From Escherichia phage RCIP0319, in the sequence record PV464738.1: a stretch of DNA of 64,000 bases. One strand, written 5' to 3'. A model generated the notes under the pieces. It had not been told where the DNA came from. It saw nothing but the letters and a program-made list of their open reading frames with translations, and did not search any database. The translations under genes and the position numbers were made by a program. Shown one piece after another: positions 34,914-34,957 of this stretch (positions are counted from its first letter, which is position 1; each line of letters begins with the position of its first letter).

Positions 34914-34957
34914 CGTTTCGATGAGATAAATATAACTCATCGAAACGCACAAGTAAA
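34914..34957 (-). promoter_or_regulatory. sigma70-like promoter overlapped by 12-bp perfect palindrome (candidate operator)
   Basis: Minus strand TTTACT, 17-bp spacer, TATATT; palindrome CGTTTCGATGAG / CTCATCGAAACG (34914-34947) spans the -10 and spacer. Confidence 0.4.

Follow-up and report, generated by a model that had tools for sequence, protein, structure and literature searches.

What does a perfect palindrome laid across the core of a promoter do? The question is raised by a short intergenic gap in the genome of Escherichia phage RCIP0319 (sequence record PV464738.1), of which a stretch of 64,000 nucleotides (nt), referred to below as the window, was analysed. In this gap, on the minus strand between a PNK-like and a fabG-like gene, a sigma70-like promoter is interleaved with an inverted repeat (34914-34957, here element A). 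A first-pass annotation interpreted the palindrome as a repressor operator, an interpretation that is not supported, as the half-site does not recur beyond A and its copy B and it is the pairing rather than the sequence that is conserved. We favour a different explanation, to which we give a little less than an even chance: A may be a sigma70-type internal promoter lying within an inverted repeat whose function is that of an RNA hairpin, formed only in read-through transcripts. The phage belongs to the genus Wifcevirus, a group of ~68-kb E. coli myoviruses, and the Escherichia phages FEC19, WFH, Ro157lw and Bas98-101 match window bases 33000-37000 at 94-97% identity. The layout of A, in the direction of transcription, is as follows.

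34958-34960, minus strand: stop codon TAG of the PNK-like gene, directly preceding the -35 of A.
34952-34957, minus strand: -35 hexamer TTTACT (12.1 bits), unchanged in nine other Wifcevirus genomes.
34935-34951, minus strand: promoter spacer, 17 nt.
34936-34947, minus strand: 5' arm of the inverted repeat, CGTTTCGATGAG, within the spacer.
34929-34934, minus strand: -10 hexamer TATATT, in the loop of the inverted repeat and 37 nt before the fabG-like ATG.
34914-34925, minus strand: 3' arm, CTCATCGAAACG, at the start of the predicted 5' untranslated region (the first ~12 predicted transcribed bases); it holds a box, CATCGAAACG, that is common to A and its copy B.
34899-34904, minus strand: Shine-Dalgarno (SD) sequence AAGGAT of the fabG-like gene, outside the hairpin.
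34209-34892, minus strand: fabG-like gene, with its ATG at 34890-34892.

The perfect 12-bp palindrome that had been noted over the promoter is present, with its 5' arm in the spacer, the -10 in the loop and the 3' arm in the leader. The 12-bp arms lie 10 nt apart; extended to 15 nt they contain one mismatch (93% complementary) and enclose a 4-nt A/T centre. By our own estimate, about 0.2 perfect 12-bp inverted repeats no more than 45 nt apart are expected by chance in 64 kb. As RNA, A folds at -22.1 kcal/mol (z = -5.2), a value equalled by 0/200 shuffles, and its helix comprises 12 perfect pairs, or 14 with one U.U mismatch. The predicted transcription start is the A at ~34922, 7 nt past the -10. 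RNA started at A would lack the spacer-encoded 5' arm and could not fold the hairpin, whilst the -22 kcal/mol structure would form only in transcripts arriving from thyX-PNK, beginning 10 nt past the PNK stop codon. Read-through and locally started mRNA isoforms would in this way be made structurally different.

Two roles for such a hairpin were considered and rejected. It is not an intrinsic terminator, since there is a U-tract on neither strand (the hairpin is followed by AAGUCCAAAAAGG) and A is not listed by a terminator scan that does detect 33446-33427, 26210-26189 and 38284-38264. Nor do the hairpins of A, of B or of a third element, C (described below), gate a ribosome-binding site, the predicted accessibility of SD and AUG being equal in both RNA isoforms (for the SD of A, 0.35 against 0.35). 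A search of Rfam at E <= 1 over 26-40 kb gave no match to a known RNA family. Because there is no U-tract, the SD is uncovered and accessibility is equal between isoforms, the most likely role of the A hairpin would be that of an intercistronic boundary structure, which would shield the 3' end of the thyX-PNK message, or fix its position, once the A/U-rich leader has been cleaved. The promoter itself would drive mainly fabG-orf56-VOC, with most transcripts expected to end at the following terminator.

33427-33446, minus strand: intrinsic terminator GGCCGTCCTAATGGGCGGCC followed by TTTTT, 3' of the VOC gene and between VOC and dnaQ (terminator scan).

This structure carries a terminator annotation in WFH, WFC and Mansfield also. 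The first-pass annotation had placed an SDR/VOC/dnaQ/dnaE transcript under the control of A; the SDR (fabG-like) and VOC portion of that unit stands, whereas dnaQ and dnaE, being preceded by this strong terminator, would mostly fall outside it.

That A is a promoter at all is suggested by several observations. The hexamers read earlier as TT(G/T)ACT, 17 bp, (C/T)ATA(A/T)T are found on the minus strand at both sites, as TTTACT-17-TATATT in A and TTGACT-17-CATAAT in B, and both elements do lie just upstream of gene starts, namely those of the fabG-like gene (34892) and of an 87-aa open reading frame (ORF; 27965). Each sits in a short intergenic gap in the orientation of the gene downstream, and both are nearly invariant among nine other Wifcevirus genomes. 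The -35 context of A, GTTTACTT, is T4-early-like. A simple promoter scan of 24-42 kb returned 24 sites against 23.6 expected, that is, no overall enrichment; a position-weight scan of the window with a threshold of 11 bits gave 39 sites, where shuffled sequence gave 18.8 +/- 4.1. The syntenic promoters of Kyle and PA1 (Kylevirus) and of MyoSmar (Myosmarvirus) keep the 17-bp spacing together with A(-11) and T(-7). Sequence, placement and orientation thus support A and B as good sigma70-type promoters. What the data show directly are the sequence features with their conservation, covariation and folding energies, whilst promoter activity, hairpin formation in vivo and the role of the hairpin are what we infer. 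In a distant relative, Pbunavirus 14-1, 26 sigma70-like promoters are reported to have been mapped experimentally genome-wide (Putzeys et al. 2024, PMC10914365).

The second copy of the element comprises the following features.

27981-28045, minus strand: copy B, between the helicase gene (stop codon 28040-28042) and the 87-aa orf87 (start 27965).
28021-28026, minus strand: -35 hexamer TTGACT, followed by a 17-nt spacer (12.5 bits for the promoter).
28017-28025, 28011-28016 and 28002-28010, minus strand: 5' arm, loop ACGGAA and 3' arm of a spacer hairpin, from folding and covariation.
27998-28003, minus strand: -10 hexamer CATAAT.
27981-27993, minus strand: 13-nt box TCATCGAAACGAA, common to A and B, just past the -10.

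The identity of about 75% claimed for the two copies is confirmed, at 47/64 positions without gaps over the span from ATTAAT to CGAAACGAA, with a local alignment score of 32 against 9.0 +/- 1.5 (maximum 16) in 1000 dinucleotide shuffles. A repeat search of the window also pairs A and B. On these comparisons A and B are true paralogues; additional copies were looked for genome-wide, and none was found beyond these two. What had been described as a degenerate palindrome in B is instead a different, evolutionarily conserved hairpin, UGACUUGUC / acggaa / GAUGAGUCA, in which the -35 is paired with bases just 5' of the -10. The B spacer is complementary to the box at only 6/12 positions. With a 5' half (AATAGTTTACTTGT...GATGAGT) resembling B and a 3' half like the ancestral fabG leader, A looks like a chimera, which points to recombination or gene conversion between promoter cassettes.

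Conservation of the B hairpin can be followed over a long distance. Synteny reaches Kylevirus (Kyle, PA1), Myosmarvirus (MyoSmar, MTx, TropicalSun), Carpasinavirus, Bcepfunavirus and Pbunavirus, and in all these genera the gap downstream of the helicase, the B position, holds TTGCCN-17-CATAMT with a hairpin running from the -35 to bases 5' of the -10. Spacing is constant at 17, whilst stems range between 5 and 11 bp and loops between 4 and 14 nt; the promoter sequence also occurs in Pbunavirus phiKTN6. In an alignment of seven sequences drawn from six lineages, pairing holds for 90.5% of cells, whereas sliding the partners gives 28.6-54.0%. Both partners have changed in 5/9 pairs, with a covariation score of 0.561 (against 0.186) that 0/500 shuffles attained. 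Imperfect pairs comprise 7 sense-strand G.U cells and 2 C.A cells, the latter at the loop edge, and a bias of this kind speaks for RNA of the sense strand over duplex DNA or a cruciform. By these alignments, B is the Wifcevirus form of an ancient promoter with a spacer hairpin that has been kept from Pbunavirus to Wifcevirus.

A itself is younger. An ancient promoter at the PNK-fabG junction was considered and ruled out, as the two genes adjoin without a promoter in Carpasina and more distant relatives; the A promoter therefore arose within the enterobacterial-phage lineage. Its palindrome is present in 10/10 Wifcevirus sequences (the window and nine relatives), and its changes are G.U-compatible only: the arms have just two natural substitutions, in Bas99 and Bas101, each a C to U opposite G. 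When an 18-nt anchor was used to seek further A variants in metagenome and IMG/VR contigs, there were 93 matches, 5 of them Wifcevirus, and no new variant; four of the five are identical to the window and one has variants known from WFC, the rest of the matches being chance A/T-rich sequence.

Two further promoters in the window share the architecture of A. One, element C, lies in the same minus-strand module and the other on the plus strand in the structural module.

37178-37183, minus strand: -35 hexamer TTTGCT of element C, followed by a 17-nt spacer.
37165-37177, minus strand: 5' arm of C, TTCTGCTTCAATG, 13 bp perfect, in the spacer.
37155-37160, minus strand: -10 hexamer TATACT of C.
37137-37149, minus strand: 3' arm of C, CATTGAAGCAGAA, at the start of the 5' untranslated region, upstream of a 148-aa ORF (start 37118).
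15748-15753, plus strand: -35 hexamer TTGCTT of the fourth element (12.1 bits), followed by a 17-nt spacer.
15754-15767, plus strand: 5' arm of the fourth element, ATAGACTCCTTATA, 14 bp perfect, in the spacer; anti-Shine-Dalgarno.
15771-15776, plus strand: -10 hexamer TATAAT of the fourth element.
15789-15802, plus strand: 3' arm of the fourth element, TATAAGGAGTCTAT, from the Shine-Dalgarno up to the baseplate-spike start codon.

Element C folds at -19.1 kcal/mol (z = -3.9) and is 100% conserved in 9 other Wifcevirus genomes. Transcription starts are predicted at ~37148 for C, ~15783 for the fourth element and ~27991 for B. The element at 15748 is unchanged in Bas99, and here the predicted SD accessibility does differ between isoforms, at 0.00 in read-through RNA against 0.85 in internally initiated RNA. 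In MyoSmar the same baseplate-spike gene has an equivalent of other sequence, TCGCCATTATAATAT/GTATTATAATGGCGA, which joins the -10 region to SD/AUG. The arms of A, C and the 15748 element are mutually unrelated, and their gaps measure 10, 15 and 21 nt.

How the pairing arose at A and C can be read from Kylevirus. Kyle and PA1 have small spacer hairpins at the A and C positions (CGCCTCTT/AAGGGGCG, CGCCGTA/TACGGCG and GCUCA-agga-UGAGC) that covary between both phages. The leader of A, TATCTCATC..AAACGAA, is also found in Kyle and PA1, so that in Wifcevirus it is the spacer that has been altered to complement the leader; at C, by contrast, the spacer TTGCTTTCTGCT.CAA is common to Kyle, so that the leader has been altered to complement the spacer. 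That 12-13 bp of complementarity were gained twice, independently and from opposite sides, is an argument for selection acting on the pairing.

Two observations made alongside concern relatives of these elements. A promoter after the primase gene (42065-42110, plus strand) has in common with C the sequence AAATA(A/G)TTTGCTT and a leader box, TGAAGCAGA; judged by these shared sequences, the two are a second paralogous promoter pair, like A and B. On the IMG/VR contigs L152 and L154, which come from distant relatives, the B position 3' of the helicase gene is occupied by a 12-bp hairpin that carries CATAAT or GATAAT at its tip and is followed by GAAACGA(A), an A-like architecture with part of the A/B box in another lineage.

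A broader proposition can be put with somewhat less confidence. Throughout the Pbunavirus-Wifcevirus supergroup, the spacer or the flanks of the -35 and -10 may encode the 5' arm of a hairpin, such that the transcript 'records' whether it was started upstream or locally. Which promoter an RNA came from would then govern translation of the baseplate spike, since only read-through RNA would have its ribosome site sequestered, whilst A and C would set message boundaries or stability, and spacer hairpins with GGA loops could be CsrA/RsmA sites. The short hairpins bound by CsrA/RsmA have a GGA in their loop, set within CANGGANG. GGA is often found in the loop of the helicase-downstream spacer hairpin (28002-28025 in the window, and in the sequences labelled L141, L013, L227 and L150, among others), the motif reading UCACGGAAGA for B in Wifcevirus, UCAAGGAAGA in Pbunavirus and UCAUGGAUGA in PA1, with CAAGGAUG in three other promoters of MyoSmar and PA1. 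Within Wifcevirus, the N of the CsrA-like motif is the sole variable base of the B loop, and the motif is only mildly enriched in the window as a whole (40 against 26.2 expected). In these features the GGA-loop spacer hairpins resemble CsrA/RsmA binding hairpins.

Several points weigh against the explanation favoured for A. There is no compensatory double change in its arms, as the Wifcevirus genomes compared are too alike to supply one. The 13-nt box is identical in A and B and yet is paired in A only; this identity suggests a sequence-specific role of the box itself that lies outside the RNA model, and the leader box (consensus YGAARCRRA) may have such a function of its own. Equal predicted accessibility of the ribosome site in the two A isoforms means that no direct consequence of the hairpin is demonstrated by the modelling. 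The fold statistic for the clade, in which 10/31 promoters are more stable than 95% of their shuffles when the hexamers are kept constant, speaks for structure but comes from a set that was partly assembled by hand. A literature search found no paper on Wifcevirus transcription and no Wifcevirus transcriptome, nor any transcription start, RNA 3' end or processing site mapped in the genus. Finally, a perfect 12-15-bp palindrome centred on the -10 also looks like an operator or a cruciform.

Of the alternatives, the operator survives best, although it is unlikely. A dimeric repressor of phage or host origin would bind the palindrome, occlude the -10 and the start and shut off the fabG unit, B being a weaker target with a single half-site. 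Operators of LexA, TetR and Arc-type repressors overlap -10 and +1, and A likewise has perfect dyad symmetry over the core promoter, centred on -10 and +1. The identity of the box at two promoters suggests sequence-specific recognition, and conservation is higher in the intergenic regions than in the codons on either side. Unlike such operators, however, A has perfect arms of 12-15 bp, longer than protein half-sites need, and its site does not recur: in the window and in the remaining 4.5 kb of the genome, the half-site TCATCGAAACG is found only at A (twice) and B (once), and neither the box nor the GATGAGT-plus--10 motif has any further copy. C and the 15748 element have a like geometry with arms unrelated to those of A and with gaps of 15 and 21 nt, and such unrelated arms and varying gaps cannot be explained by one sequence-specific dimeric repressor, whereas a requirement for pairing can explain them. 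Orthologous promoters in other genera also conserve pairing and not sequence, and both natural substitutions in the A arms turn G-C into sense-strand G.U. Of 40 ORFs that are small or of unknown function, none matched a DNA-binding domain in Pfam, which leaves room for a novel fold or a host factor; the annotation of Bas99 likewise lists no regulator.

Quite improbable, in turn, is a cleavage site for RNase III or another endonuclease. Cutting of the read-through hairpin would separate the thyX-PNK message from the fabG message, leaving a 3' hairpin on the upstream RNA and giving the downstream RNA a 5' end near the primary one. Substrates of RNase III in E. coli typically extend over about two helical turns. 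The A helix falls below this length and is without an internal loop of the kind present in T7 sites, which counts against cleavage, even though it is a perfect 12-bp intercistronic helix (14 pairs with the mismatch included) whose 3' arm falls where the primary transcript is predicted to begin. T7 does pair RNase III sites with promoters, as in R3.8/phi3.8 and R6.5/phi6.5 (PMC6938266), and, as there, A combines an intercistronic hairpin with a promoter in one short gap of a polycistronic operon. Unlike the T7 pairs, A has its start inside the hairpin, so that only read-through RNA folds; moreover, the T7 pairs use phage polymerase promoters, whereas A is of the sigma70 type.

A cruciform switch is very unlikely. 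Negative supercoiling would extrude the palindrome and take the -10 out of the duplex, creating a promoter sensitive to superhelicity; an artificial E. coli promoter regulated by cruciform extrusion was reportedly described by Horwitz and Loeb in 1988, and the 15-nt arms of A, with their one mismatch and 4-nt A/T centre, fit this scheme. The 15- and 21-nt centres of C and the 15748 element are, however, unfavourable for extrusion, the stems of the relatives contain G.T on the sense strand only, equivalent to A.C mismatches in the other arm of a cruciform, and the small 5-8-bp spacer hairpins of the relatives could not extrude. It is no easier to believe that the palindrome is a functionless by-product of recombination or gene conversion between cassettes in which only the promoter matters, for although the chimeric make-up of A is plain to see (B-like in its 5' half, ancestral in its 3' half) and cassette recombination is documented for the PeSL (promoter-early stem-loop) elements of T4-type phages, joining B-like and A-like halves gives no 12-bp perfect complement (the 6/12 match of B spacer to box), the palindrome is kept in all ten Wifcevirus sequences with G.U-compatible changes only, and a like design arose independently at C and 15748.

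The favoured explanation, a promoter nested in a hairpin specific to read-through RNA, has partial parallels in known systems. During retroregulation of lambda int by sib, a hairpin 3' of the gene is completed or not according to terminator read-through. As in lambda, the originating promoter would decide whether the hairpin is complete, and hence which isoform is structured or, in lambda, processed; unlike sib, the A hairpin is 5' of the gene, and its completeness needs a start upstream of the promoter spacer. Among published elements, the nearest are the PeSL cassettes of T4-type phages (Arbiol et al. 2010, PMC2839356; Comeau et al. 2014, PMC4122927), each of which unites a stem-loop with a strong sigma70-like early promoter and its A/T-rich upstream region. 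Like these, the Wifcevirus elements unite promoter, A/T-rich upstream region and stem-loop in one short intergenic cassette that is repeated within the genome, and the chimeric appearance of A, as if derived from two cassettes, recalls the recombination between PeSL copies, by which genes are reshuffled; no indel evidence was found for the Wifcevirus elements. The PeSL stem-loop, however, lies upstream of the A/T-rich region and is a terminator or attenuator, whereas the arms of A have no U-tract and interleave with the promoter core, and it is this interleaving that sets A apart. PeSLs also number dozens of copies and occupy hyperplastic ORFan regions; Wifcevirus has two close copies, A and B, and the related pair of C and the promoter at 42065, and its elements are not so placed. 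A B-type promoter is present in Pbunavirus, where the 14-1 group is reported to use the host RNA polymerase and to have many internal sigma70-like promoters; the part of that study available to us describes no spacer-nested hairpins of the Wifcevirus kind (PMC10914365).

The region from A to B is a minus-strand module for replication and nucleotide metabolism with the order thyX, PNK-like, A, fabG-like, orf56, VOC, terminator, dnaQ, dnaE, helicase, B, orf87. When all its intergenic gaps were read, every gap of at least 54 bp proved to have a hairpin a short way past the stop codon of the upstream gene. Canonical terminators occupy gaps that have a separate promoter after them (23913-24087, 38180-38311 and 39158-39310) as well as gaps without a promoter (26171-26227 and 33409-33462), whereas the gaps of A, B and C (65-74 bp) hold a hairpin that has no U-tract and overlaps the promoter. 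The hairpin is absent at divergent or first promoters (40.9 kb, 57.2 kb and 1.4 kb). A replication origin near 35 kb was considered and excluded, there being no switch of GC skew at that point; the skew minimum is the divergent region near 41 kb. Two genes 3' of promoter B are conserved companions of the replication module, one at 27148-27705 (minus strand) encoding Pfam DUF7307 (Pam3 gp33-like, E 2.6e-37) and the other at 26228-27088 (minus strand) encoding Pfam Pam3_Gp34 (E 4e-86).

Other repeats were observed elsewhere in the window. At 18690-18943 (plus strand) a perfect 127-bp tandem duplication frameshifts a would-be 912-aa tail-fibre ORF (17804-20669), which is truncated at 18838 with the remainder open in another frame; the duplication is either an assembly artefact or a real disruptive duplication, possibly reversible. 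Two long intergenic regions, at 1075-1356 and ~55280-55345 (both plus strand), contain clusters of ATCCGTATC / GATACGGAT repeats in both direct and inverted orientation, among them a perfect inverted repeat of 16 bp, CGTATCATCCGTATCA / TGATACGGATGATACG; to judge from their arrangement, these clusters look like iterons or binding sites for a phage protein. An intergenic element repeated at 48185-48219 and 50885-50919 (plus strand), 89% identical, forms a hairpin, AAAAAGGTGAGC...GCTTGCCTTTTT, that encloses an SD-like AAGGTG and an ATG.

For those who annotate phage genomes, A illustrates that a perfect palindrome over a -10 need not be an operator, and that a hairpin in a promoter spacer need not be a terminator. 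Wifceviruses and their Pbunavirus relatives are candidates for phage therapy whose gene regulation is almost undescribed. If the explanation favoured here is correct, a DNA signal, the promoter, and an RNA signal, the hairpin, would be overlaid on one stretch of ~50 bp in these compact genomes, the hairpin being open to view only in RNAs begun elsewhere, a design that could be put to use in synthetic operons. It would provide the phages with a simple, protein-free way of treating read-through and locally initiated mRNAs differently.

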